Shown here one piece after another: positions 6,810 to 51,997 of a stretch of DNA of 52,329 bases (position 1 is its first letter; every line of letters starts with the position of its first letter). The stretch lies in the sequence record NC_048799.1; one strand, written 5' to 3'. Below the pieces are notes generated by a model. The model had not been told where the DNA came from and ran no database searches. It was given only the letters and a program-made list of their open reading frames with translations. The DNA comes from Escherichia phage Mangalitsa. The translations under genes and the position numbers were made by a program.

Positions 6810-6850
6810 ATTAACAAGGGGCATTCATTGAGTGTTCCTGATTAATTCAA

Positions 6851-6870
6851 CATTAGTTGGATGTGAGAGA
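6851..6870 (+). promoter_or_regulatory. phage-RNAP-type promoter CATTAGTTGGATGTGAGAGA
   Basis: Motif family member, 70 nt upstream of the SSB-tail gene. Confidence 0.55.
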
Positions 6871-6938
6871 CAAAGCTATTCCGTGGTTAGCAATGTCGCT
6901 GAAACTTAAACTGTAATTAACTTAAAGAGAATTTAATC

Positions 6939-7313
6939 ATGGCACAATTTAACGATTTAAACACTGGTATTCTGGGTTCCAATGGCTTCAAGAAAGCTGA
7001 AAATCATCCAGACGTTCGTGGTCGCATTAACGTAGAAGGTATTTGGTATTGGGTGTCTGGCTGGAATAAGAAAGCTGGCAACACCGAATTTACCTCATTG
7101 GCACTCACCATCATGACTCAGGAACAGGTTGATGAAATGATGCGTAAGCGTGAAGAGAAGGCTAAAGCCAAAGCTCAACCTCAAGCTGCCGCTCAACAGC
7201 AACAGCCACGCCAGCAGCCAACTCAGCAACAGCAAGCTCCTGCTCAACAACAACAGCAGAGCAATTATAACCCGAACGAGCCGAAAGACTTCGACGACGA
7301 CATTCCATTCTAA
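6939..7313 (+). CDS. mini SSB-like protein: short N-domain, Gln/Pro-rich linker and a C-terminal tip identical to E. coli SSB (DFDDDIPF)
   Basis: C-terminus ...NPNEPKDFDDDIPF; low-complexity linker QPQAAAQQQQPRQQPTQQQQAPAQQQQQ; N-terminal 70 aa is too short for a canonical OB-fold SSB. Confidence 0.55.
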   Translation: MAQFNDLNTGILGSNGFKKAENHPDVRGRINVEGIWYWVSGWNKKAGNTEFTSLALTIMTQEQVDEMMRKREEKAKAKAQPQAAAQQQQPRQQPTQQQQAPAQQQQQSNYNPNEPKDFDDDIPF

Positions 7314-7326
7314 TTGGAGATGCCCT

Positions 7327-7446
7327 ATGAAAATTTTATGTTTTATAGGGCTACATAATTGGGAGATTTCTCATACAAACGATTATGTAACCTTTTGGGT
7401 GTGTAAGCACTGCTCAGAAATGCGTGAGGAGTATCATGGACAATAA
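7327..7446 (+). CDS. hypothetical small Cys/His-containing peptide (39 aa)
   Basis: GGAGA RBS; MKILCFIGLHNWEISHTNDYVTFWVCKHC...; below ORF-track cutoff. Confidence 0.3.
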   Translation: MKILCFIGLHNWEISHTNDYVTFWVCKHCSEMREEYHGQ

Positions 7447-7912
7447 GTTTGTCGAAATACCTGCCAACTTGGTTAAAGCTGGCGACGTATTAGTATATAG
7501 CAACAGAGAATATTTAATTGTAAAAGTTCTGCGATTTAGTTCTGTAGTTCAACTCCAATATTCCGGAGGATACTACAATTTTGAGTTTGGGCGCATAGTC
7601 AAAGTGTTGGACAGGCCACCAGCTTCAGGAACCTCAACAATTGAATTCCCAAACCAAATAAATCCAGTATTCCTTCCTGTGGAGAATAACATGGAAACAT
7701 TAAATATTCAAAATGCAATCGAAGCACAACGCATTCTTCTGCAAAAGTTGGAGCAAATGTTGGAATTAACCCAGCTTACACCAACAAAAGATGGCAAGAT
7801 TGCAATTGGCAACTGTAACATTCGCGTGGACAAGGCATCAATCACTAAAGCCGTACGAGATGAAATGAAAGCTGCCGCAAGCAAATCCGCAGAGCTTATC
7901 AAGAAGCTGTAA
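7436..7912 (+). CDS. hypothetical protein
   Basis: ATG 7436 with GAGGAG RBS (ORF-track frame begins earlier at 7424). Confidence 0.5.
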   Translation: MDNKFVEIPANLVKAGDVLVYSNREYLIVKVLRFSSVVQLQYSGGYYNFEFGRIVKVLDRPPASGTSTIEFPNQINPVFLPVENNMETLNIQNAIEAQRILLQKLEQMLELTQLTPTKDGKIAIGNCNIRVDKASITKAVRDEMKAAASKSAELIKKL

Positions 7913-7964
7913 TTAACAGAGGTCATTCCACTTCGAGTGGCCTCGATTAATTATTGGAGGTTAC

Positions 7965-8096
7965 ATGTGGGATATTTATCTTGAAGGTGTTGACGAGCCA
8001 ATTTCAACACTTAACACACAATTTGTTACGGTTGGGTGTGCAATCCTCTACAAAGGTAGGTTGTACACCGTATCTAAAATCGTTCAGAGGTTTTAA
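7965..8096 (+). CDS. hypothetical small protein (43 aa)
   Basis: GGAGG RBS 4 nt upstream; stop overlaps the ATG of the next gene. Confidence 0.3.
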   Translation: MWDIYLEGVDEPISTLNTQFVTVGCAILYKGRLYTVSKIVQRF

Positions 8097-8437
8097 TGAA
8101 AACATTTTACATCTTCTTAGTTATTCTTTTCGGCGTCTTAACCTTTAAATCTGAAGCCAAACAGGTTAAATTTGGTTGCGACGGCTTTGATGTAACTTTA
8201 GACCAGTTTGAAAACAGACCAATCGTAGCATCAATCACATTTGAACCAGGTACTTGGGTTGAAGTTCCAGAAAGCGGAGATTCAAACACCATTCACCTAT
8301 TCAATATAGTCAATAGCAAACTTGCAGTTATGGGTATGGACCATCATGGCTCACTGTTTCTGCAAATTTATCGCGATTATGATTTCTATCAGGCCCACCA
8401 GCCTCAACATAGTTTAAGATGTTTGGAGAGAAAATGA
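8096..8437 (+). CDS. hypothetical exported protein (N-terminal signal peptide)
   Basis: MKTFYIFLVILFGVLTFKSEA-KQ: hydrophobic leader with an A-X-A-like cleavage context. Confidence 0.5.
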   Translation: MKTFYIFLVILFGVLTFKSEAKQVKFGCDGFDVTLDQFENRPIVASITFEPGTWVEVPESGDSNTIHLFNIVNSKLAVMGMDHHGSLFLQIYRDYDFYQAHQPQHSLRCLERK

Positions 8438-8661
8438 CGTCAGCCGAATTTACCATTGATGGAGTACCATACTTACTAGAATCCAATTGCGAATACCGCC
8501 ATTGGTCAGTAATTCACGACCGAGTTGTAAAATACTTGGAACGTGTAGGGAGAGCAACCGCAGTATTGTTTGAAGCAACCGTTGAAGGTAGTACATCAAT
8601 CAATAAAGAGTGTGTTGCTTTTAAATTAACCATCAACCCACAAGGTAATAACTTCCGATGA
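8434..8661 (+). CDS. hypothetical protein
   Basis: ATG 8434 with GGAGAG RBS, overlaps upstream stop. Confidence 0.45.
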   Translation: MTSAEFTIDGVPYLLESNCEYRHWSVIHDRVVKYLERVGRATAVLFEATVEGSTSINKECVAFKLTINPQGNNFR

Positions 8662-8924
8662 AAGTTGAAGAACTTGCAGACCGCTTGGCGGCAGCAAAGA
8701 AAGAGCTTGCAACACATGCTACACGTGTTAATTCTCTTAAAGCACTCCCTTCTGGTGAGGAAATCTCACTATTCACAGACAATATTTGGTTTTCAATGAA
8801 TCGTGCACAATTTATTGAGATTCAGGACCAACGTTTGGCTGAACTGGAGCAGAAAGTTGCCAGTTATGAGGGTTTACTGCAAACTTTACAAGCAACACTG
8901 GACCAGGAGCTGGGAAATGTCTAA
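8658..8924 (+). CDS. hypothetical coiled-coil protein
   Basis: ORF; Leu/Glu/Ala-rich heptads. Confidence 0.5.
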   Translation: MKVEELADRLAAAKKELATHATRVNSLKALPSGEEISLFTDNIWFSMNRAQFIEIQDQRLAELEQKVASYEGLLQTLQATLDQELGNV

Positions 8925-9315
8925 TGTTAAGTTGGGCCAACGCTCACTTGACCGACTCAAGGGTGTAAATCCCTCATTAGTGGCAGTTTTCAAGCGTGCA
9001 TGTGAAACAATGCCGTTTGATGTAACTGTTCTTGAAGGATTGCGCACTTATGAGCGCCAACAAGAGCTTTTAAAGCAGGGTGCAACCAAAGTTTCAGTTA
9101 GCCGACACATGTCAGGCAATGCTTTAGACATTGCACCATATCCAATTGACTGGAATGACCTCGAACGATTCCAAATTGTAGCTGAACACATGTTCAAAGC
9201 CGCAGAAGAGCTTGGAATTGTCATTCGTTGGGGCGGAACATGGGAGCGTTCATTCACTAAGCCAGTGAAATGGGCTAAATTCCTAGACGCACCACACTTC
9301 GAACTTCCAGCATAA
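8917..9315 (+). CDS. peptidase M15 family, T5 Lys-like L-alanyl-D-glutamate endopeptidase (endolysin candidate)
   Basis: SRHMSGNALDIAPYPIDWNDLERF, IRWGGTW and PHFEL match the zinc-peptidase signature of T5-type endolysins as recalled; ATG 8917 overlaps upstream stop. Confidence 0.7.
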   Translation: MSNVKLGQRSLDRLKGVNPSLVAVFKRACETMPFDVTVLEGLRTYERQQELLKQGATKVSVSRHMSGNALDIAPYPIDWNDLERFQIVAEHMFKAAEELGIVIRWGGTWERSFTKPVKWAKFLDAPHFELPA

Positions 9316-9335
9316 CTTCATCAATGGAGCATCCG

Positions 9336-9614
9336 ATGAATTACGAAGATATCCCAAGAGAGTTGAATGCACTAGAGTCAAGAGCCATCCGTGCAGAGAA
9401 TATTCTCCACCAGCACCTATCAATTAACGTAGGTGATGAAAAGAAGATGCAGTACACTATGGAACTTGACGATGTAGTCTACACTGTCAGTTACAACGAG
9501 AAGGCTGCTATCCTCAGTGCACTTATCAAAGGTGGAAATGAGCGAATCAATCAACTTAAGATTCTGGACACAGAATTGAGAGGCACTTGGGAGAAACTAA
9601 ATGCAAAACGATAA
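9336..9614 (+). CDS. hypothetical protein
   Basis: ATG 9336 with GGAGC RBS (alternative ATG at 9324). Confidence 0.45.
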   Translation: MNYEDIPRELNALESRAIRAENILHQHLSINVGDEKKMQYTMELDDVVYTVSYNEKAAILSALIKGGNERINQLKILDTELRGTWEKLNAKR

Positions 9615-10149
9615 CATTACTCAAGCAGTAGAACAGCTAAAGTCCTGGCGTAGAGATGAAACCTTATTGGTTCGTTTCTACACAGGCGAAACTAATTCTG
9701 AATTTGTAGATGCGTGGATTGATGGCCTGTCTTGGCGTCACTATGATTTCAACATGCGGGACTATTTGCATGAAGAATATGGCATTGAATATCCAGAAGA
9801 CGGTACATATGACGTAATTGAATCAAACGAAGAAGATGTTACCGAAGTTTGCTTTGCCAATGGGCTATTCAGCATTCGTAAATATGATAAGTTCAATGGG
9901 CTGCTTGTTGACACCGATTTGGATGTAATTCTTGCAGCATTCCGCAGTGGTGAGATTGATATTTTCACTGTGGATGATTTGAACGACATGTTCATCACAC
10001 GTTGCGACTCAATTACAGAATATTTGAAGCAAAGTGAGGCACTGGATATTCCAGACCGCCTTGCACCATATATTGATTGGGATGCAATAACCAGAGATTA
10101 TGGAAGTGACTACATTTTCTCTGAGGGAATATTATTCTTAAATGCGTGA
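9601..10149 (+). CDS. acidic protein, candidate ArdA-like DNA-mimic anti-restriction protein
   Basis: Strongly acidic 182 aa; segments FYTGETNSEFVDAWIDGL and YIDWDAITRDYGSDYIFSEGILF resemble ArdA N- and C-terminal signatures as I recall them; not search-verified. Confidence 0.4.
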   Translation: MQNDNITQAVEQLKSWRRDETLLVRFYTGETNSEFVDAWIDGLSWRHYDFNMRDYLHEEYGIEYPEDGTYDVIESNEEDVTEVCFANGLFSIRKYDKFNGLLVDTDLDVILAAFRSGEIDIFTVDDLNDMFITRCDSITEYLKQSEALDIPDRLAPYIDWDAITRDYGSDYIFSEGILFLNA

Positions 10150-10381
10150 TTTAAATATTGCTGAACTTGAGGCTGGATTGATTGTTCACCACCAGCCTCG
10201 AAACACTTTCTATCGTATTCTTGGGCCTACAAAGATTAAAACTCACTCCGGAGATTGGGTAGATGGGTTTGCTTACCAGGAAGTGAAGAAATACGGGAAT
10301 CATACTTTCTTGAGTATTGATTCTTCTACTATCTACACACGACCGAAAGAGCTATTTGACTCAGATTGGAAAACACTATAG
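10142..10381 (+). CDS. hypothetical protein
   Basis: ORF overlapping upstream stop. Confidence 0.45.
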   Translation: MRDLNIAELEAGLIVHHQPRNTFYRILGPTKIKTHSGDWVDGFAYQEVKKYGNHTFLSIDSSTIYTRPKELFDSDWKTL

Positions 10382-10591
10382 TTCCAGGCGGTTTCTTCGA
10401 AGTGCCAAGCGGGTTTGTTGCTCGCATTGGCCTTCGGCATTCTTCTGGGGCATTAGTGGGATTTGATTCTGACCTCTTAGGGAAGAAAGGCATTATACAC
10501 TTATCGCCAAATAGGTGTCAAGCACTTTCTTCATTTATTTTAATTTATTCTTATTATTCTTTTTGTTTGGAATATTGGAATAATTCTTAAA

Positions 10592-10610: not shown

Positions 10611-10785
10611 GATTAAAGTCCTGGAAAAAGATAATGTAACCTTCACACGCCAATGCCAGTTGTGTGCCTCTGTTGTGTCTTATGAATTCTCTGACTTAAA
10701 GATGCGCACAGGAAAGAATGACCGAGGATACTTCGCATACAGATTTATTCCTTGTCCTGTTTGTAAGAAAGATATTCGACATTAG
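10609..10785 (+). CDS. hypothetical zinc-ribbon protein (58 aa)
   Basis: CQLC ... CPVC pairs; stop codon lies inside the next promoter motif; below ORF-track cutoff. Confidence 0.45.
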   Translation: MIKVLEKDNVTFTRQCQLCASVVSYEFSDLKMRTGKNDRGYFAYRFIPCPVCKKDIRH

Positions 10786-14041: not shown

Positions 14042-14296
14042 ATGGAAAGCATTGCCGTATTAATTGTTGGTGTTCTGTTGTTTGCTGCATACATGATTCC
14101 AACTCTCATTGCATTTAGTCGTGGTCATGCTTCCAAGTGGGGCATTTTCATTACAAATCTGTTACTAGGTTTAACAGGAATCTTTTGGGTTGCTGCATTA
14201 ATCTGGTCGCTGTCCAATAAAGGTCAGCAACAATCTCTTGTTGTAAATGTTGGCAGTAATAATGTCAGCAATGTATCACAAAAGGATTCGCTTTAA
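14042..14296 (+). CDS. superinfection-immunity-like small membrane protein
   Basis: Two predicted TM helices; MIPTLIAFSRGHASKWGIFITNLLLGLTGIFWVAALIWSL fits the A..R.H....I..N.LLG.T.I.W..A.IW pattern I recall for this family. Confidence 0.5.
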   Translation: MESIAVLIVGVLLFAAYMIPTLIAFSRGHASKWGIFITNLLLGLTGIFWVAALIWSLSNKGQQQSLVVNVGSNNVSNVSQKDSL

Positions 14297-14543: not shown

Positions 14544-14639
14544 GGACGAGTAGCTCAGAAGGTCTGCTCCAGAGCTTAGTCAGGTAGAGCAATCTGTTCG
14601 ACAGATGTGTCGTTGGTTCGAATCCAACCTTGTCCACCA
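14544..14639 (+). tRNA. tRNA-like gene with an expanded D region; candidate anticodon UCG (Arg) if the anticodon loop is GTTCGAC
   Basis: 7-bp acceptor stem GGACGAG/CTTGTCC, canonical T-arm GTTGG-TTCGAAT-CCAAC, discriminator A and encoded CCA; D-arm-like GCTT-AGTCAGGTA-GAGC preceded by about 20 extra nt; 93 nt before CCA. Confidence 0.4.
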
Positions 14640-14818: not shown

Positions 14819-15055
14819 ATGCAACAGCTTAAGTCAATCTTTCTTGGCGTCTTGACTGCATTGGGTATTCTCCTTGCAGTGTTCCTCAAAGGCAAAAGCT
14901 CAGGCAAAGCCGAGGAGCGCCAGGAAGCCAAAGAGAAGCAATTCGATTCCATTAAAGAATCTATCGAGATTAAAACGCATGTTCAGAAAGAAGTGTCTAG
15001 CAGTTCTGATAGCAATGTCGATAGTGAGTTGCTCTCAAAGTGGGTTCGTAAGTGA
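14819..15055 (+). CDS. small membrane-anchored protein, possible i-spanin-like
   Basis: N-terminal TM IFLGVLTALGILLAVFL followed by a charged helical region; AAGGTG RBS. Confidence 0.4.
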   Translation: MQQLKSIFLGVLTALGILLAVFLKGKSSGKAEERQEAKEKQFDSIKESIEIKTHVQKEVSSSSDSNVDSELLSKWVRK

Positions 15056-15188
15056 TTACTGCATGATTGCACAACCAATATATTTGGATGTTGCAGAAGT
15101 GAAAGTTTTGTCACGCGAAACCAAAACACAGATTTTAGTCCACAATGAAACGTGGGCACAAAAGTGTTCGAAACTTACCCGACAGTGA
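14979..15188 (+). CDS. possible o-spanin-like lipoprotein overlapping the preceding gene in the +1 frame
   Basis: MFRKKCLAVLIAMSIVSC: positive n-region, hydrophobic core and lipobox-like IVSC; starts inside 14819..15055 and extends past it; rare codons weaken the call. Confidence 0.3.
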   Translation: MFRKKCLAVLIAMSIVSCSQSGFVSDYCMIAQPIYLDVAEVKVLSRETKTQILVHNETWAQKCSKLTRQ

Positions 15189-36970: not shown

Positions 36971-37146
36971 TATCCCTGTTCCCAGACATAAAGTATTTTC
37001 TGCATCGTCCTATTATTGAAGATAGTTCCCTCTGTACTCTTCGTGAGTTGCAAGATGGAACTTATTCTTTAATAGATTTGTTGTTATTCCATGACATTCT
37101 CGATTTGCGTAAGAAACTCGAACCAGTAGAAGAAGACAATGGCTAA
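36874..37146 (+). CDS. -1 frame C-terminal extension of the tail assembly chaperone (GT-like fusion)
   Basis: Open -1 frame of about 90 codons with no start codon of its own, ending at TAA overlapping the tape-measure ATG. Confidence 0.5.
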   Translation, partial: QARARNQRTETVGGGGSIQAGRAEEFESGDSLVSLFPDIKYFLHRPIIEDSSLCTLRELQDGTYSLIDLLLFHDILDLRKKLEPVEEDNG

Positions 37147-40100
37147 TCAAAAAGATTTAATGAAGTTAGGCACTAGCGAGTTAATTGCTCTTGGTGCACA
37201 GAGCGGTCTGACTTTCCATGCTGGTATGAAGAAGTCGCACATGGTTCAACAACTTAGTGCGAGTGCTGCTTCTGGATGGATGGAAACAAATGCAGAATTA
37301 ATGGGTGGAACATTCGAAGATACTGGTGAAGTTTATACAGAATCTTTTGGGGATTCATCCATGATTTCAGACGCTGCTCATGTGGCTCAAATGCTCTCAG
37401 GAGCTGGTTACACAGAAGCGTTTCACAATGCAATGAACGGTCCACAACACCATGTAGAAGCAGTTCATGCATACATGGAAAGGCTCGGTGTCAACACAGA
37501 TGATGTGTGGATGCACATGCCGAAAGCCAATCCAAACTTGCCGCAGGGCAACTTCAATATGCTTAATGCCTATATGCGAGATACTTTGCAAGGGCATCAA
37601 GATATTATGCCGGAAATCCCAGGACATTACACTGGGGATATTATGGCAGAATACTCCACCAACCGTGGAAACATTGCTGACTCTTATAACTACATGGCCC
37701 ACATGTATGTTGACCGTGAGCAATATGCAAGTCATGAATTATACGCAAGAGACATTAGTCGAGTTGCCAAACGTCTGGAACAAGAGTTGCCTTCCTCCTT
37801 TAAGGAGATTGGGTATACCGCTGCCTCTAATGTAGGAAATAAATCGGCCCCACATATTTCATACATGGATGCACTTCCGCAAATTGGCTCTCCATCAATT
37901 GTTGCTGGCATTTCACATCCTCGCCAACCTCTTAATGCGTCTGGCTTACCACTTGGTTCTTATGGCTCTGGCATCAATCCAGAATATTCCCTCACTGCAT
38001 CATTAACTGGTGGCACTGGTTGGAGCGAACCAAGCAAGGCATTATATTCATCTATTAGCGAGGCTGTTAAGTCTGCTGCTAAAGTTTACTCTGGCAAAAC
38101 CGGAATGAACAACACGCGTCATGAAGTATCTGACCGTGACATGATTATGGATTCCGCTACTCGTTATGCTGATTTGGAAGAAGCTCGTAGTGGATATGCC
38201 AACCTTAAGTCAGAGCTTGCTGACGAACCTTCATATTCTGCATCAAGTGTTCGGGCAATTCTCGAAAACACTTATGACAAAATGGATGCTGAACCTATTC
38301 GCATTCCAGAAATGAAGTCTGCGTCACAGAAGATTGTTAAGGATTCACAATCAACTTCTACAGAGTTTACTGCACAACTTGGTGAAGCAACCAACTGGAA
38401 CTCTGCCAGAATGCGTCGTGAAGAACTTGCGATTGCAAACATGGATAGTGCAGGATTCAGGGATGTATCAGACTACGGAACTGGAAAGTCCGAGTCTCCA
38501 ATCAAGTTCCATGACCTTGAGCAAGGTAGTCAAGAGTGGTTAGACTTTCGTAAGCAGTACGACGTAACTGGTTCTACAGTTGGCACGTTCCTTGGTAACA
38601 ACGCATACACCCGACCTTGGGCTGGAATGGTTGACAAACTTGGAATATCCAGAAGTAAAGAGCCAAGCGATTTCACTAAGAAGATGTTCGCTGATGGTCA
38701 CAGAACGGAAGAAGAAGCACGCGCTCGCGTAAGTAAGGAATTTGGATTCAATATTGCTCAAACTGGCGCTATAACAAATGACAACTATCCCGCCTTTATG
38801 TATTCTCCTGACGGCCTTATTGGTGATGACGCCATTTGGGAGCATAAGAATCCGCAAAGGGCTGGTAAGTTTGCTGACCTTCTTAGTGGCGACCATCCAG
38901 ACTACATGGACCAAGTTCAATTTGGTATGCACGTATCTGGTCGTAACCGCGCTCTGTTCTCTCAAACTATCAACAACGAAACCCGTTCGCAATGGATTGA
39001 GAAGGACGAAGGATGGTACGAAAGAAACCGAAATCGTCTTGATTCTGTGCTTGGTCGTCTTGATGCTGGGCGAGAGTTTGTTAGAAACAATCCTTCACTA
39101 GACCGAGAAGAACTTGTCGCTGGTGCTCGTAGTGCAGTGGTGGGTGATGGCATCTGGAAGGATGTTAAGCAACGCTCTAATCGTGGGTTTAGTCCTGCTG
39201 CTGGTACGTCAGAAGACCCATTCATTGGTTCTCGTCCTTCTTTCGACCCAAATCCTGGCGGCACTTCTGACTACAAACCAAACTTTGTTATGCACGAGCA
39301 AAACTTCCCAGCTGTAGTTGGTGATGGAAGTAATGACTCAATGGCCCTTTCTGTTAAGCGTGGTATCTTAGCGGCACAGGAAGAAAACAAACAGAAAGGT
39401 ATCTCTGGTGTAGATGCCGATTTCGATGGCAAACAAGATTCCACTGTTGGTTGGAATCAGGAACGTTTCGATGCAGCAAATGGTGGCGGCAGTGGTGGCG
39501 GCGGTGGTCGAGGATATTTCTCGGCGGGTGGAAACTTTGGCGATGACTTTGGAAAGGCAGGTGGTGCACTTGCTTCTGGCATCGCTGGTGGTAGCTTATC
39601 TTCTGCATCAAACGGTGTGATGCAAGCACTGATGGCAACTCCTGCTGGACGTATGGCGGCAGTTGGTATTGGTGCAATTCAGATTGGTAACGAAGCTGCT
39701 GACTTCATGAATGATTACATTGGTCAATCTCTTGACGCTGGCGTAGCTAATCCAAATGAATACTCTTCCATGTCGCAAGGCTTGGAAATGTTGGGGCTAA
39801 ACTCCCAGCAAGCTAACCGTTTGAATCAAACCACACATAGTGCCTACAACACCATGCTTAACGGCGACCCCAGTGCCGCTGTGAACATTGTTCGTGGCAG
39901 TAGGGGATTGCTCACCATAGGTGATATTCGCTCGACTGGCGGCGACCCCGTGGCCTTAGCTCGCATTATGCAGGAAAGGGGCAAGGAACGTGGCTGGAGT
40001 CAGGCCCGTATCGCTGGTGCTGCCGAGATGGCTGGCCTACAGGGTATGGCGAGAGCATACGACCGCACGGAATACAGCCATGAGCGAGCAGGTTCGGTGG

Positions 40101-40858
40101 TAGAAAGCGGCAGAAACTCTGACTTTGCCGAAGGTATGGCCCAATCAGAAATGTTGCAGGTGGAGCGCGCACAGCTCCTGCCAGGGTATAACGTGCCACA
40201 AAGTGTGTTATCTCATGGTGCTGCACTGTTCGAAGCTGGAAGCACTGCTGCTGGTGCTGCTAACTCTGGATACAGCCAAGCCCGACAAGTTGCTGCAAAC
40301 GTTTATGATTTTATTGCTGGTGAAGAGTCTGGTGGCAGGGAATACAACAAGGATGGTACACGAGTTACAAGCCCAACTGGTGCTCGTGGAATCATGCAGG
40401 TTCTTCCTTCTACTGCTCGTGACCCAGGTTATGGAATCAAACCTTCTGATGGAAGTCCTGAAGATGATGCTCGTGTTGGTCGTGAATACTACGATGCGAT
40501 GTACAAACGATTCGGTGGCGACCATGAGAAAGCAATGGCTGCTTACACGGATGGTGCTGGAACTGTTGACAAGGCTGTCGATAAGTTTGGAATGGATTGG
40601 CTCAGTGCTGTTCCGGCTCAGGCTCAGAAGCGAGTTAAAGCGTATCGTGATTGGGCTAAGTCTTCCGAAGGCTTGGATGAAGGTGCGACTGGATTCACAC
40701 GGAATGGTATCTCCTATGGTCAAGCTCAAACCACTGTTAACGTGAAGATTGATGCGAAGGTTAATAACCAAACTGCATCTGCCACTGTAGCTGTTCCTGG
40801 CGGTCAGACTGTGACTCAGCAAATGAACATGCACAATGGTGCGCAACAAAGAAGATAA
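37139..40858 (+). CDS. tail tape measure protein with C-terminal soluble lytic transglycosylase domain
   Basis: 1239 aa; Gly-rich segments; transglycosylase signature GEESGGREYN...GARGIMQVLPSTARDPGYG. Confidence 0.75.
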   Translation: MANQKDLMKLGTSELIALGAQSGLTFHAGMKKSHMVQQLSASAASGWMETNAELMGGTFEDTGEVYTESFGDSSMISDAAHVAQMLSGAGYTEAFHNAMNGPQHHVEAVHAYMERLGVNTDDVWMHMPKANPNLPQGNFNMLNAYMRDTLQGHQDIMPEIPGHYTGDIMAEYSTNRGNIADSYNYMAHMYVDREQYASHELYARDISRVAKRLEQELPSSFKEIGYTAASNVGNKSAPHISYMDALPQIGSPSIVAGISHPRQPLNASGLPLGSYGSGINPEYSLTASLTGGTGWSEPSKALYSSISEAVKSAAKVYSGKTGMNNTRHEVSDRDMIMDSATRYADLEEARSGYANLKSELADEPSYSASSVRAILENTYDKMDAEPIRIPEMKSASQKIVKDSQSTSTEFTAQLGEATNWNSARMRREELAIANMDSAGFRDVSDYGTGKSESPIKFHDLEQGSQEWLDFRKQYDVTGSTVGTFLGNNAYTRPWAGMVDKLGISRSKEPSDFTKKMFADGHRTEEEARARVSKEFGFNIAQTGAITNDNYPAFMYSPDGLIGDDAIWEHKNPQRAGKFADLLSGDHPDYMDQVQFGMHVSGRNRALFSQTINNETRSQWIEKDEGWYERNRNRLDSVLGRLDAGREFVRNNPSLDREELVAGARSAVVGDGIWKDVKQRSNRGFSPAAGTSEDPFIGSRPSFDPNPGGTSDYKPNFVMHEQNFPAVVGDGSNDSMALSVKRGILAAQEENKQKGISGVDADFDGKQDSTVGWNQERFDAANGGGSGGGGGRGYFSAGGNFGDDFGKAGGALASGIAGGSLSSASNGVMQALMATPAGRMAAVGIGAIQIGNEAADFMNDYIGQSLDAGVANPNEYSSMSQGLEMLGLNSQQANRLNQTTHSAYNTMLNGDPSAAVNIVRGSRGLLTIGDIRSTGGDPVALARIMQERGKERGWSQARIAGAAEMAGLQGMARAYDRTEYSHERAGSVVESGRNSDFAEGMAQSEMLQVERAQLLPGYNVPQSVLSHGAALFEAGSTAAGAANSGYSQARQVAANVYDFIAGEESGGREYNKDGTRVTSPTGARGIMQVLPSTARDPGYGIKPSDGSPEDDARVGREYYDAMYKRFGGDHEKAMAAYTDGAGTVDKAVDKFGMDWLSAVPAQAQKRVKAYRDWAKSSEGLDEGATGFTRNGISYGQAQTTVNVKIDAKVNNQTASATVAVPGGQTVTQQMNMHNGAQQRR

Positions 40859-40863
40859 GGAGT

Positions 40864-40890
40864 TGGGGAGAAATCCCCAGCTTTCCTTTA
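40864..40890 (+). terminator. candidate intrinsic terminator
   Basis: TGGGGA-GAAA-TCCCCA hairpin followed by GCTTTCCTTTA. Confidence 0.5.
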
Positions 40891-40910
40891 CATTAGTTGA
40901 ACGTGTATTA
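40891..40910 (+). promoter_or_regulatory. phage-RNAP-type promoter CATTAGTTGAACGTGTATTA
   Basis: Motif family member after the tape-measure terminator, upstream of the baseplate genes. Confidence 0.5.
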
Positions 40911-48773: not shown

Positions 48774-49859
48774 ATGGCTAAAGGCTATTCTTTAGACGCG
48801 TTGGTGCAAGAGCACTATATGAAGTCTAGTACCAACCTGGATAATATAAATATCGACACCCTTACAGGAATGGATAGTGTTGGAGTGTATTACCAGTCAT
48901 ACAACGCTTATGCCATACTTGCAAATAATTACCCTCCAGGTGCGCAAGCAGGTACTTTGGAGGTTATTCCAACAAACGTAGGCTCTGCGGGTCGTGTGAC
49001 ACAAAGATATACAAACTGGCAAGACCTTCGTATGTGGGTGCGCGGCCAAAGTGGAAGCACGACGGCGGCCGATTTAAGTTTTAGCCCGTGGGTGGAGTTT
49101 ATAAATGCCAACAACATTTATAATGCCATCTATCCGATTGGTATTGTTCTCAAGTTTGATAACGCCACCAACCCAAACAACTCCTTCACAGGAACTGTGT
49201 GGCAACAAATCACAGATGGTCGTGCTGTTCGTGCTGCAACTTCTGCTGTGGCTGGAGCTACCGATGGACAGATTGGTTCTGTAGCTGGCAGTGATTCTGC
49301 ATCAATCGCTGTAGCCAACCTCCCATCACACACCCACAACATGCGTAACCATACCCACTCTATTGCGTCCCACACGCACACTATGGCCCATACGCACTCA
49401 ATAAACCACGACCACGGTGCGGTAACATCGAGTTCGGCTGGTGCTCACACACACAGCTTGAGTGGCACTGCTGCTTCTGCTGGGAACCACAACCACAACC
49501 AGGGCGTTGCATGGGAGCATGGTGGCGACACGCAGTATGGCTCTGTTACTGTTGGTAACAAGTCGCGTCGCCAGGACTGGCTTGATGGTGGTAACAACCA
49601 GTATCCTAAGACTTCAACCAACGGTGCTCACACACATAGTGTTAGTGGTACTGCAAACTCTGCTGGCGCTCACACGCACTCTGTAGACCTGCCTAACTTC
49701 ACAGGCACAAGTGGTGGCTCCAGTGCTGCTAACACAGGCGGTACTGCCCTGACGACTGGTGCACCTAGCTCCAACGAATCGGATGCAACTGGCGGCGGTA
49801 CTGCCTTAACCGTCCGTAACTCATCTCACTACTATGCCCTCTGGAAACGAGTGGCTTAA
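48774..49859 (+). CDS. tail fiber distal protein with His-x-His repeats
   Basis: HTHNMRNHTHSIASHTHTMAHTHSINHDHG and two further GAHTHS repeats, resembling metal-coordinating HxH motifs of myovirus fiber tips. Confidence 0.55.
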   Translation: MAKGYSLDALVQEHYMKSSTNLDNINIDTLTGMDSVGVYYQSYNAYAILANNYPPGAQAGTLEVIPTNVGSAGRVTQRYTNWQDLRMWVRGQSGSTTAADLSFSPWVEFINANNIYNAIYPIGIVLKFDNATNPNNSFTGTVWQQITDGRAVRAATSAVAGATDGQIGSVAGSDSASIAVANLPSHTHNMRNHTHSIASHTHTMAHTHSINHDHGAVTSSSAGAHTHSLSGTAASAGNHNHNQGVAWEHGGDTQYGSVTVGNKSRRQDWLDGGNNQYPKTSTNGAHTHSVSGTANSAGAHTHSVDLPNFTGTSGGSSAANTGGTALTTGAPSSNESDATGGGTALTVRNSSHYYALWKRVA

Positions 49860-49866
49860 GGAAATC

Positions 49867-50208
49867 ATGGAACGCTTATCCATTCAGATGTTTCTCGACC
49901 TCATGCACCAATACGGCGTTTGGCATGGATTGCTGGCTGGCCTGACGGCTCTAATCCGTGGGGCATACGAGAGTGAGGGTTTAAGCAAGGCGTTGCTGGA
50001 TGCGACGCTATGCAGCTTAATCGGCCTGTTTGCATTTCAGGTCGCTGGCACATTTGAGACTTTCACGACTAACGTCACTATGCAGTTAGTTCTTGCGATT
50101 GTTATCGGTGTGATTGGTGCAAACCTCATTATCACAACTGTCAGGGAAAGTTTCTCTGGCGCAATCAAACAACTTAATCCTTTGACGTGGTTCAAGAAGG
50201 CACGATGA
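49867..50208 (+). CDS. putative holin
   Basis: Three predicted TM segments, basic C-terminus, AAGGAA RBS; immediately upstream of a cell-wall hydrolase. Confidence 0.45.
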   Translation: MERLSIQMFLDLMHQYGVWHGLLAGLTALIRGAYESEGLSKALLDATLCSLIGLFAFQVAGTFETFTTNVTMQLVLAIVIGVIGANLIITTVRESFSGAIKQLNPLTWFKKAR

Positions 50209-50225
50209 AATGATAAGGAACTCGA

Positions 50226-50780
50226 ATGCTATCATTCAAAGTTCTTGCACTTCTGACAGCTTTAGTTCACATCAACGCCCCAGCTTCGGTTGGGGCAGTG
50301 AATTCTGCTATTACAGATTTTGCAAGTCATTCCTATTTAAATGGAAGTCTGAAACTATCTTCTTCACAACGCAAAGAGCTAGAATGCTATACTAAAGTAA
50401 TCTGGTACGAAGCTCGTGGTGAAGATAAACATGGAAAGATTCTGGTAGCTAATGTCGTCCGTAATAGAACAGAGTTCGGGAAGCCATTCGCTAACACCGT
50501 TTGTAATGTTGTCTACCAACGCAATCAATTTGCATGGACACGAGAAGCAAAGAAGAAGAATGCTCAATGGAAGCATGTAGCAAAGATTAATTATGCCACA
50601 GAACAACAACAAGTTCTGGACACCATTAATGTTGCAATCTCTTTTGTACTATTTAATCAACCCTCTATCACCAAAGCAACTCACTTTTGTACAGCATCGG
50701 AGAAGTGCAACTTCAAGAATGTCAAAGGTCTGGGCCGCTATGGTGGACATAAATTCTATGAGTATCTAGGAAATCTGTAA
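50226..50780 (+). CDS. SleB-type cell wall hydrolase with N-terminal signal or signal-anchor sequence
   Basis: [29 protein letters not shown]...[17 protein letters not shown] matches the SleB/CwlJ catalytic-domain pattern; hydrophobic N-terminus [24 protein letters not shown]. Confidence 0.65.
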
Positions 50781-51880: not shown

Positions 51881-51997
51881 TTGGTTACGGTGAAGGCTGA
51901 CGTTTGTCAGTTAATATGTGAGAAGAGATTCGATGCGTTAGCGTCGTTTCTCTTTGAGCTAGAATAAAACAAGTAAATTAAATATTTATTTATTCCC

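Follow-up and report, generated by a model that had tools for sequence, protein, structure and literature searches.

Two Predicted Peptidoglycan Hydrolases, an M15 Peptidase and a Holin-Linked SleB-Like Enzyme, in Escherichia Phage Mangalitsa

Two Cell-Wall Enzymes in One Genome

The window, 52,329 nucleotides of Escherichia phage Mangalitsa (NC_048799.1), is a complete Carltongylesvirus genome (family Chaseviridae) of a phiEcoM-GJ1-type coliphage. At positions 8917-9315 (plus strand) it encodes a 132-aa protein that lacks a signal sequence and has Pfam, PHROG, and PDB matches to M15C L-alanoyl-D-glutamate peptidases of the T5 Lys type. The ATG at 8917 lies 7 nt downstream of an AGGAG and overlaps the stop of the preceding ORF. 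The protein scored 36.9 bits against Pfam Peptidase_M15_4 (cut-off 25), matched PHROG 465, annotated as endolysin, at E = 4e-55, and matched solved L-Ala-D-Glu peptidases, including T5 Lys (2mxz) at E = 6e-20. Read against the residue roles given in the EndoT5/EndoRB49 paper (PMC10487532), its zinc ligands H64, D71, and H127 (H-x6-D plus a C-terminal H) correspond to EndoT5 H66, D73, and H133, its catalytic D124 in DAPH (D124-x-x-H127) to D130, and its active-site W109 in GTW to W114. Alignments to 2mxz and 8q2g stop near residue 113. The T5 enzyme is Ca2+-activated through a regulatory loop specific to EndoT5, which could not be aligned with the Mangalitsa protein; the loop here, ERSFTKPVKWAKFL, has no acidic cluster, and relatives carry a second variant beginning SRIDEN. 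The C-terminus is of the phiEcoM-GJ1 type, as opposed to the ST32/SA91KD type. Values of dN/dS were 0.05-0.27 among the relatives compared, and the gene is under purifying selection. Its product is a putative cytoplasmic L-Ala-D-Glu peptidase, predicted to consist of a bare catalytic domain without export signal.

The second enzyme, a putative lytic transglycosylase of the SleB family (Hydrolase_2), is a 184-aa protein encoded at 50226-50780 (plus strand), starting 18 nt 3' of the holin gene. It was recognized by Pfam, where it scored 57.1 bits against Hydrolase_2 (PF07486; cut-off 27), by PHROG 938, and by a fold search. Since its PDB sequence match was weak (E = 0.005), an AlphaFold model and a fold search were made, and these settled the fold. 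The model has a mean pLDDT of 87, with residues 1-19 below 50, and Foldseek gave convincing PDB matches only to the catalytic domains of SleB in 4fet and 4f55 (target TM-scores 0.72 and 0.65, both at probability 1.0), so that the modeled protein is assigned a SleB catalytic-domain fold. All 33 homologues compared, among them those of T5-like phages, keep E62 (in WYEARGE). In the alignment it falls on chain position 26 of 4f55, or residue 157 provided that the chain begins at 132; we take E157, at the start of the domain, to be the catalytic glutamate of B. cereus SleB. C54 and C93 are likewise invariant in these homologues, while C155 and C161 are jointly absent from four sequences. With dN/dS of 0.03-0.31 among the relatives compared, this gene is also under purifying selection.

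The phage protein thus has the catalytic-domain fold and the E-x-R-G-E glutamate in common with Bacillus SleB, but the two differ in several respects. Their sequence identity is just 19-21%, and the phage protein lacks the N-terminal peptidoglycan-binding domain of Bacillus SleB, with only the signal peptide and one helix preceding its catalytic domain. It also has two extra conserved cysteine pairs, which suggest periplasmic disulfides. Furthermore, Bacillus SleB needs muramic delta-lactam, which is missing from the E. coli wall that the phage enzyme would meet. The SleB-like enzyme is probably a lytic transglycosylase that cuts glycan strands, a chemistry that would yield 1,6-anhydro-MurNAc products, and we assume that it is active on Gram-negative peptidoglycan.

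An initial annotation had placed two distinct free peptidoglycan hydrolases at exactly these coordinates, the SleB-type one with a hydrophobic N-terminus and directly 3' of a holin, and our analysis bears this out. It had named a lack of catalytic residues in either protein as the finding that would count against it; we looked for such a lack, and both sets are intact. The coliphage genome is accordingly described here, from its sequence, as encoding two intact, unrelated putative cell-wall enzymes.

Phages of the phiEcoM-GJ1 type carry this gene set as standard, and a layout with two endolysins has been published before for Carltongylesvirus (SKA49, 2023). Which of the enzymes is essential has been left to experiment in the literature on both Carltongylesvirus and T5-like phages. 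We found no activity assay, mutant, or transcriptome in the literature on Chaseviridae lysis genes, and lysis experiments, promoter data, and transcriptomes are likewise absent from the reports on ST32, 4HA13, phage Tiny, and the Yersinia zoo phages. A paper on a "Chaseviridae endolysin" of Pantoea phage PA1 was set aside, as it concerns an unrelated lysozyme-like enzyme and is silent on the M15 and SleB-like genes. Our contribution lies in the holin family, the signal type of the SleB-like protein, the evidence of purifying selection, the co-occurrence of the two enzymes, the CHAP replacement in phage PM1, and the adjacency of M15-type and SleB-like genes in phage BUCT696.

Export Signal, Holin, and Spanins

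Residues 1-20 of the SleB-like protein are a predicted Sec signal peptide, followed by S, with an n-region (MLSFK), an 11-residue h-region, and a c-region (NAPA↓S). This tripartite pattern, with small residues at -3 and -1, is kept in the SleB-like homologues of Chaseviridae and T5-like phages, and a conserved [A/V]-P-A↓S box, or an AxA-type box, occurs in 33/33 homologues. The possibility had been raised that the protein is a signal-anchor-release (SAR) endolysin. SAR domains are weakly hydrophobic, Gly/Ala-rich stretches of some 16-20 residues or more, enough to cross the membrane; they lack a signal-peptidase site, go with a pinholin, and let go of the membrane on depolarization. The longest apolar run of the SleB-like protein, counted without charged or helix-breaking residues, is 9 residues (9-13 in relatives), as compared to 20 in the SAR domains of P1 Lyz and R21; H, N, and P break up the hydrophobic segment. 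Together with the cleavage box and a holin of the lambda-S type rather than a pinholin, this disfavors the SAR reading. By these features the N-terminus resembles a cleavable Sec signal peptide more than a SAR anchor, a call made from simple hydrophobicity measures and reference sequences rather than a trained predictor. Sec crossing without a holin, as proposed for the SleB-like enzyme, is known from P1 Lyz and phage 21 R (both SAR) and from fOg44 Lys44 (signal peptide). The Mangalitsa protein has a SleB-type fold in place of a lysozyme-like one, and its N-terminus differs from those of the two SAR enzymes as described; the fOg44 precedent comes from a Gram-positive host.

The holin gene (49867-50208, plus strand) encodes a 113-aa protein of the lambda-S family with three hydrophobic segments, as judged by Pfam, PHROG, and alignment with lambda S. 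An AAGGAA ribosome-binding site serves its start at 49867; an in-frame ATG upstream, at 49834, overlaps the tail-fiber gene and is unused in relatives. The protein scored 33.6 bits against Phage_holin_3_1 (PF05106; cut-off 23.8), and its residues 21-93 align with residues 23-92 of lambda S, with three hydrophobic peaks. Both M1 and M8 are present in its N-terminal MERLSIQM, in a charge pattern unlike the M-K-M dual-start motif of lambda. By homology, we classify it as a putative class I holin of the lambda-S type rather than a pinholin; such a holin would suit an endolysin that has to be let out of the cytoplasm. The spanin genes lie at another locus, which has a predicted i-spanin gene (14819-15055, plus strand; 78 aa with an N-terminal transmembrane segment; PHROG 1026, 7.6e-19) and a predicted o-spanin gene (14979-15188, plus strand; 69 aa with a lipobox-like SIVSC; PHROG 1275, 8.8e-18). 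The two overlap by 77 nt, as in phiEcoM-GJ1, whose catalogued spanin pair includes an i-spanin of equal length and similar placement (Kongari et al., 2018, supplement).

A third wall activity, a transglycosylase carried by the tape measure, had also been claimed and was recovered. The gene at 37139-40858 encodes a 1239-aa tape-measure-like virion protein with an SLT (lytic transglycosylase) domain at aa 1045-1149 (40271-40585, plus strand; 47.8 bits against a cut-off of 21.3). A homologue of this protein was detected in purified virions of the relative 4HA13, as one of 15 high-coverage proteins, and the SLT domain is likely the entry enzyme. This bears on a further suggestion of the initial annotation, that one of the free enzymes may act at entry or block superinfection; the former would have it carried in the virion. 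Many phages do carry virion-associated lysins, and the M15 gene is distant from the holin. However, the signal peptide would take the SleB-like protein away from virion assembly in the cytoplasm, the bare M15 domain offers nothing for virion attachment, and neither enzyme is among the 15 virion proteins of 4HA13, while the SLT domain would already supply the entry function. Superinfection exclusion by either enzyme finds no support, and a dedicated Imm-type superinfection protein is encoded separately at 14042-14296. We consider a role of this kind very improbable.

Transcription Units

Promoter-like sites for the phage RNA polymerase suggest that the two enzymes belong to different units. One such site, CAACATTAGTTGGATGTGAG at 6848-6867 (plus strand), heads a unit (6848-10440) that runs from SSB through M15 to ArdA; phiEcoM-GJ1 and SA91KD have annotated counterparts of this site. 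Because the M15 gene lies downstream of this match, we assign it to a middle, T7-class-II-like unit and not to a host-transcribed early unit. It had been described as lying in the early block with no holin nearby. The latter part stands, since the closest ORF of membrane type (8096-8437) matches no holin and contains just one hydrophobic segment, at its N-terminus; "early" describes position only and does not agree with the phage-type promoter match upstream. A second site, with the core CATTAGTTG at 40888-40907 (plus strand), lies just 3' of a hairpin and heads a unit of baseplate, tail-fiber, holin, SleB-like, and nrdB genes. The likely end of this late unit is a terminator-like hairpin after nrdB, found by a hairpin scan (51931-51946, plus strand). 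Matches to the phage-specific promoter core are enriched in the window, with 31 found against 17.3 expected and none of 100 shuffles reaching 31. Generic scans for sigma-70 promoters and terminators returned sites no more numerous than in shuffled sequence.

Conservation within Chaseviridae

The Carltongylesvirus members phiEcoM-GJ1, ST32, SKA49, and DE15 share the set of lysis genes and its order with Mangalitsa. Among these relatives the SleB-like protein is 97-99.5% identical to that of Mangalitsa and the M15 protein 80-100%; the holins of DE15 and phiEcoM-GJ1 are 100% identical to the holin here. Counts of M15/SleB-like records were 36/36 for Escherichia, 22/22 for Erwinia, 8/8 for Yersinia, and 2/2 for Pantoea phages. 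Co-occurrence inside one phage family partly reflects shared ancestry.

Two relatives depart from this layout. In Pectobacterium phage PM1, tblastn found no M15 gene anywhere; the position between SSB and ArdA is held by a 158-aa CHAP-domain protein without signal sequence, whose match, at 28.7 bits, exceeds the cut-off of 26 only modestly. By this assignment, the M15 slot is kept for a predicted wall peptidase. The replacement by an unrelated CHAP enzyme suggests that wall cleavage, rather than a specific protein contact, is under selection, and regulation of the phage RNA polymerase by the M15 protein, in the manner of T7 lysozyme, was set aside on this ground. The distant relative Aeromonas phage BUCT696, of the subfamily Nefertitivirinae, has a gene for an M15-type peptidase (115 aa) in its late cassette, with the SleB-like gene following directly. 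The peptidase has HKQKLAID and DGNH motifs and matches PHROG 1768 at 6e-10, with a Pfam score of 23.6 bits, just below the cut-off of 25.

These patterns could be taken to mean that the SleB-like enzyme, whether secreted or SAR, is the sole real endolysin and that the M15 peptidase is dispensable or does something else during infection. The SleB-like gene lies next to the holin in all Chaseviridae genomes examined (PM1, Farigoule, PYps16T, phiEcoM-GJ1, DE15, and BUCT696), and it alone of the two is orthologous across two subfamilies. The M15 gene has C-terminal variants among relatives, lies at a reported recombination hotspot, and was replaced in PM1. Expression of the SleB-like homologue of phage CB7 was moreover reported to be toxic (data not shown in the source). 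But where the M15 gene was lost, another signal-less wall peptidase occupies exactly its slot, and its dN/dS falls as low as 0.05. A large-hole holin of the lambda-S type would be unneeded to free an enzyme already exported, whereas a cytoplasmic M15 peptidase could not reach the wall without one, and the gene next to the holin in T5-like phages is M15. We thus regard this reading as unlikely.

Comparison with Other Phages

T5-like phages (Demerecviridae) also carry both enzyme families in one genome at separate loci. The N-terminus of their SleB-like "cell wall hydrolase" resembles a signal peptide, and this hydrolase and the protein here have the invariant C, E, R, C, and Q in common. The layout is a mirror image of that in Mangalitsa, with M15 beside the holin and the SleB-like gene among early genes; in SP76, the SleB-like gene is 23 kb away from the adjacent holin and M15 genes. 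This arrangement can be read in favor of the M15 peptidase as the sole endolysin, released by the holin, with the exported SleB-like protein serving a non-lytic periplasmic role such as wall remodeling or turnover. EndoT5-type enzymes have biochemically proven lytic activity (PMC10487532), the holin type here is one that releases cytoplasmic endolysins, and the T5-like SleB-like gene sits amid DNA-metabolism genes, distant from any holin. In every lineage inspected or described, moreover, a phage Hydrolase_2 protein is accompanied by a second muralytic enzyme. Against this stand the tight, family-wide linkage of SleB-like gene and holin in Chaseviridae, here 18 nt apart in one operon, and the adjoining M15-type gene in the BUCT696 lysis cassette, and nothing in the sequence supports another function for the SleB-like protein. 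M15 as the sole endolysin appears to us improbable.

A similar combination is found in Pectobacterium phage CB7 (Certrevirus, Vequintavirinae), which belongs to an unrelated lineage with a much larger genome. There, the gene for a signal-peptide SleB-like protein overlaps a candidate holin gene, a T5-Lys-like M15 gene lies elsewhere, and the spanins are unlinked, so that no classic cassette exists. The CB7 candidate holin is a two-segment class II protein, unlike the three-segment holin here, and other Certrevirus members have a lysozyme-like enzyme in place of M15.

The arrangement also recalls T7, which has a single-subunit RNA polymerase, a small wall amidase gene in its class II region far from the holin, a holin gene directly after the tail-fiber gene, and spanins elsewhere. 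All of these have counterparts in Mangalitsa, including a single-subunit RNA polymerase and a wall enzyme in the middle region. T7 differs, however, in lacking another free enzyme next to its holin, and its lysozyme is an Amidase_2 protein that is also a polymerase inhibitor. Nothing indicates the same role for the M15 protein here, and its replacement by CHAP in PM1 speaks against one.

Published Carltongylesvirus annotations list a "SAR endolysin" and a "pin-holin," while our tests favor a cleavable signal peptide and a lambda-S-type holin. The comparative pattern, comprising the syntenic replacement of M15 by CHAP, the gene adjacency in Aeromonas phages, and the mirror layout in T5-like phages, corrects these labels, which are now spreading in database annotations.

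A Proposed Two-Endolysin Lysis System

Given these comparisons, we favor, with some confidence, a dispersed lysis system in which two endolysins of different bond specificity both act in lysis. The late tail-fiber operon would end in the three-segment lambda-S-type holin and the SleB-family glycan-strand cutter, which would be exported via Sec by its cleavable signal peptide and wait in the periplasm. The middle unit (SSB to the ArdA-like gene) would yield the small cytoplasmic M15 L-Ala-D-Glu peptidase, able to reach the wall only once the holin opens the inner membrane. As one enzyme would be cytoplasmic and the other already exported, holin firing would join a peptide cutter and a glycan cutter on the sacculus. 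The separately encoded, overlapped spanin pair may then break the outer membrane, while the SLT domain of the tape-measure-like protein would act at entry. It is most likely that both enzymes work in lysis and neither at entry. Gene identities, intact catalytic residues, the fold of the SleB-like protein, the holin family, the type of signal sequence, conservation, and co-occurrence come from the analysis itself. In this proposal we infer export and cleavage of the signal peptide, expression timing, bond specificity, restraint before holin firing, and the contribution of both enzymes. The cytoplasmic M15 peptidase might also attack wall precursors before lysis, which nothing supports. One argument against a dual system is that an active glycan cutter exported in advance should risk premature lysis, and no mechanism restraining the SleB-like enzyme before holin firing is visible in the sequence.

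A speculative and rather doubtful extension is that phage SleB-family enzymes are latent glycan cutters, exported in advance yet unable to attack intact peptide-bearing peptidoglycan, and are licensed only once the stem peptides have been stripped or cut by a holin-released partner (M15 here, CHAP in PM1). This would echo the requirement of Bacillus SleB for peptide-free muramic delta-lactam. If true, the endolysin would be an obligate pair of enzymes, with lysis timing set by the partner. Licensing would then account both for the lack of early lysis by exported SleB-family enzymes and for the second soluble muralytic enzyme in the four lineages considered, Chaseviridae, T5-like phages, Certrevirus, and Phapecoctavirus. 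Little depends on the finding for this genome. There is a small but genuine wider interest, as at least four unrelated Gram-negative phage groups combine a signal-peptide SleB-family enzyme with another muralytic enzyme that is cytoplasmic.

Two intact free peptidoglycan hydrolases

The three wall-degrading activities listed in the initial annotation are all present, with ORFs and Pfam/PHROG matches where they had been placed: two free enzymes, one of M15 and one of SleB type, and an SLT (lytic transglycosylase) domain in a virion protein. The SleB-like enzyme (50226-50780, plus strand; 184 aa) matches Pfam Hydrolase_2 (57.1 bits, cut-off 27) and PHROG 938. Its AlphaFold model, built on a 33-homologue alignment (mean pLDDT 87), has the SleB catalytic domains 4fet and 4f55 as its only convincing PDB matches (probability 1.0; target TM-scores 0.72 and 0.65, respectively). 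E62, in WYEARGE, is invariant across the 33 homologues, T5-like phage proteins among them, and aligns with the position taken as Glu157, the catalytic residue of B. cereus SleB.

The ORF of the M15 peptidase (8917-9315, plus strand; 132 aa) has AGGAG as its ribosome-binding site, and its start overlaps the upstream gene's stop. The product matches Pfam Peptidase_M15_4 (36.9 bits, cut-off 25), PHROG 465 "endolysin" (4e-55) and L-Ala-D-Glu peptidases of solved structure, T5 Lys 2mxz among them (6e-20). Its H64-x6-D71, D124-x-x-H127 and W109 are the counterparts of EndoT5 H66, D73 and H133 (zinc ligands), D130 (catalytic) and W114 (PMC10487532); the phiEcoM-GJ1 and ST32 orthologues were already within the published alignment (PMC10487532). 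Missing catalytic residues were looked for in both free enzymes and none were found; neither is a dead copy. In pairwise comparisons with relatives, the M15 gene has a dN/dS of 0.05-0.27 and the SleB-like gene one of 0.03-0.31, so both are under purifying selection.

The C-terminal loop of M15 (9225-9315, residues ~104-132) has two unrelated versions among the phages compared, GTWERSFTKPVKWAKFLDAPH in the window and phiEcoM-GJ1 and GNWSRIDEN...DMPH in SA91KD, Y2 and phiA050. It lies at the position of the EndoT5 Ca2+-regulatory loop; the SKA49 paper reported a recombination hotspot at M15 aa 81/82. TH53 (MT446419.1) has an M15 protein 100% identical to that of the window, but there is an offset of 733 nt between the two genes, and the DNA around them shows only ~92% identity across 80% of the region. 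The N-terminus of a 113-aa protein encoded three genes before M15 (8096-8437) resembles a signal peptide (MKTFYIFLVILFGVLTFKSEA|K); the protein has two cysteines and matches only PHROG 35432, which has no function attached. It is predicted to be a second periplasmic product of the middle unit; that it might inhibit a wall enzyme is purely speculative.

Holin, export signal and spanins

The holin (plus strand; AAGGAA upstream; Pfam Phage_holin_3_1, PHROG 126) starts at ATG 49867, giving 113 aa as in relatives; ATG 49834 was rejected as its start. It belongs to the lambda S family, has three hydrophobic segments and aligns to lambda S over residues 21-93. The SleB-like gene starts 18 nt past it, and published annotations label the pair a pin-holin and a SAR (signal-anchor-release) endolysin. 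The family match and three segments do not support the pin-holin label. The SAR assignment, also raised in the initial annotation, is likewise unsupported: by simple hydrophobicity measures, the uninterrupted apolar run is 9 residues (9-13 in relatives), compared with 20 in two reference SAR domains and 8-18 in classical E. coli signal peptides. H, N and P follow the run, then a conserved [A/V]-P-A|S box, and the neighboring holin is of the lambda S family. More distant homologues carry textbook AxA-type sites (e.g., ...FTQHALA|H and ...FSFQSHA|N), and model residues 1-19 have pLDDT <50. C54 and C93 are invariant, while C155 and C161 are jointly lost in four sequences, a pattern that would fit a disulfide-bonded periplasmic protein.

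A typical Carltongylesvirus genome, PP952070.1, is deposited as "Staphylococcus phage Pel53" with Staphylococcus hyicus as host; its SleB-like and M15 proteins are 97% and 80% identical to those of the window, and the host label is probably wrong.

The spanin pair comprises an i-spanin-type protein (14819-15055, plus strand; 78 aa, N-terminal membrane segment) and an o-spanin-type protein (14979-15188, plus strand; 69 aa, lipobox-like SIVSC), whose genes overlap by 77 nt, exactly as in the phiEcoM-GJ1 pair catalogued by Kongari et al. (2018). About 520 nt upstream, an 84-aa product with two membrane segments (14042-14296; Pfam Imm_superinfect 63.8 bits, PHROG 1039) is a T4 Imm-like superinfection immunity protein. 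A tRNA-like remnant at 14573-14628 (Rfam tRNA 27.9 bits, cut-off 29) covers model positions 9-63 without the acceptor stem. ARAGORN found no tRNA in the window, whereas ST32 and phiEcoM-GJ1 have a reported tRNA-Arg.

Genome layout and transcription units

All substantial ORFs lie on the plus strand, in the order RNA polymerase, small early genes, replication genes, head, tail, tail fibres, holin, SleB-like enzyme and nrdB, as in the complete genomes of relatives. The window is a complete Carltongylesvirus genome (Chaseviridae), with FXie-2024a, TH53, flopper, Bp7, ST32 and phiEcoM-GJ1 among its relatives. The lysis genes are spread over three sites, at ~9, ~15 and ~50 kb. Searching with the 20-mer annotated in SA91KD and phiEcoM-GJ1 as promoter for the phage RNA polymerase gave plus-strand matches at 129, 2618, 2874, 3746, 6848, 10589, 12762 and 21007 and none on the minus strand of the window. 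Its core CATTAGTTG occurs additionally at 10780 and 40891; allowing at most one mismatch, there are 31 core matches against 17.3 expected, a count reached by no shuffle. The M15 gene belongs to the unit starting at 6848, with SSB and the ArdA-like gene, a layout shared with phiEcoM-GJ1; the unit starting at 40888 ends with holin, SleB-like enzyme and nrdB. The described position of M15 in an early block holds, but the gene is downstream of the phage-polymerase promoter-like site at 6848, and in this position it resembles T7 class II genes.

The promoter-like site at 129-148 (CACCATTAGTTGGTTGTGAT, exact core), upstream of the phage RNA polymerase gene (211-2325), would let the polymerase drive expression of the gene that encodes it. 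On the minus strand, opposite to all genes, 10492-10521 is a perfect sigma-70 consensus (TTGACA, 18 nt, TATAAT; 12/12), intergenic, just past the M15/ArdA unit and pointing back into it; it could produce an antisense transcript or reflect chance.

Roles and distribution of the two enzymes

Among close and moderately distant relatives, M15 and the SleB-like enzyme have equal record counts (Escherichia 36/36, Erwinia 22/22, Yersinia 8/8, Pantoea 2/2). The simplest reading is that both are lysis enzymes. M15 would be a conventional cytoplasmic endolysin needing the lambda-S-type holin for wall access; the SleB-like enzyme would be exported by Sec ahead of time and target glycan strands; and the SLT domain (aa 1045-1149 of a 1239-aa protein in tape-measure position; gene 37139-40858, plus strand) would serve entry. 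An exported glycan-cleaving enzyme would have to be restrained before lysis; one idea is that its activity depends on the partner's action on stem peptides. Either enzyme as the sole endolysin is improbable, about equally so for the two.

The suggestion that one free enzyme is in the virion or acts at entry is unlikely, since the predicted export would take the SleB-like enzyme away from the virion assembly site and the 15 high-coverage proteins detected in 4HA13 virions purified on CsCl include the tape measure but neither enzyme.

Pectobacterium phage PM1 (Suwonvirus) is an exception to the pairing: it has the holin and SleB-like pair, and tblastn found no M15 homologue anywhere in it. Between SSB and ArdA it encodes a 158-aa CHAP-domain protein that lacks a signal sequence (Pfam 28.7 bits, cut-off 26), so that M15 has been replaced in this slot by a cytoplasmic wall peptidase or amidase unrelated to it. 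In Aeromonas phage BUCT696, of the other subfamily, the SSB-ArdA slot enzyme is absent, and a 115-aa M15-type peptidase (HKQKLAID and DGNH motifs; PHROG 1768 at 6e-10; Pfam 23.6 bits, just under cut-off) lies immediately upstream of the SleB-like gene, preceded by two small membrane proteins in a late cassette. T5-like Salmonella phage SP76 mirrors the window: holin and M15 are adjacent, and the SleB-like gene, whose product also has a signal-peptide-like N-terminus, lies in the early genes at a distance of 23 kb. In Certrevirus CB7 the gene for a SleB-like protein with a signal peptide overlaps a candidate holin, and a T5-Lys-like M15 is encoded at another place; in Phapecoctavirus phages Hydrolase_2 is accompanied by a GH24 lysozyme.

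Two endolysins are already in print for Carltongylesvirus (SKA49), with equivalent statements for T5-like phages and CB7; a 2024 paper describing the arrangement in T5-like phages states that which enzyme is used is not known. Our literature search turned up no experimental work on lysis proteins of Chaseviridae. New here are the corrected holin and export-signal assignments, CHAP in place of M15 at the syntenic position in PM1, the neighboring genes in Aeromonas phages and the mirrored layout of T5-like phages, now made explicit. With these the question about the two enzymes becomes sharper, but its kind is unchanged.

The tape-measure-like protein also has a YqaJ/RecE-like exonuclease domain (aa 466-602, ~nt 38534-38944; Pfam 48.8 bits; PHROG 434 and 149). 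It is unusual for an ejected tail protein to contain such a predicted nuclease fold; the 1185-aa counterpart in BUCT696 has a YqaJ match too.
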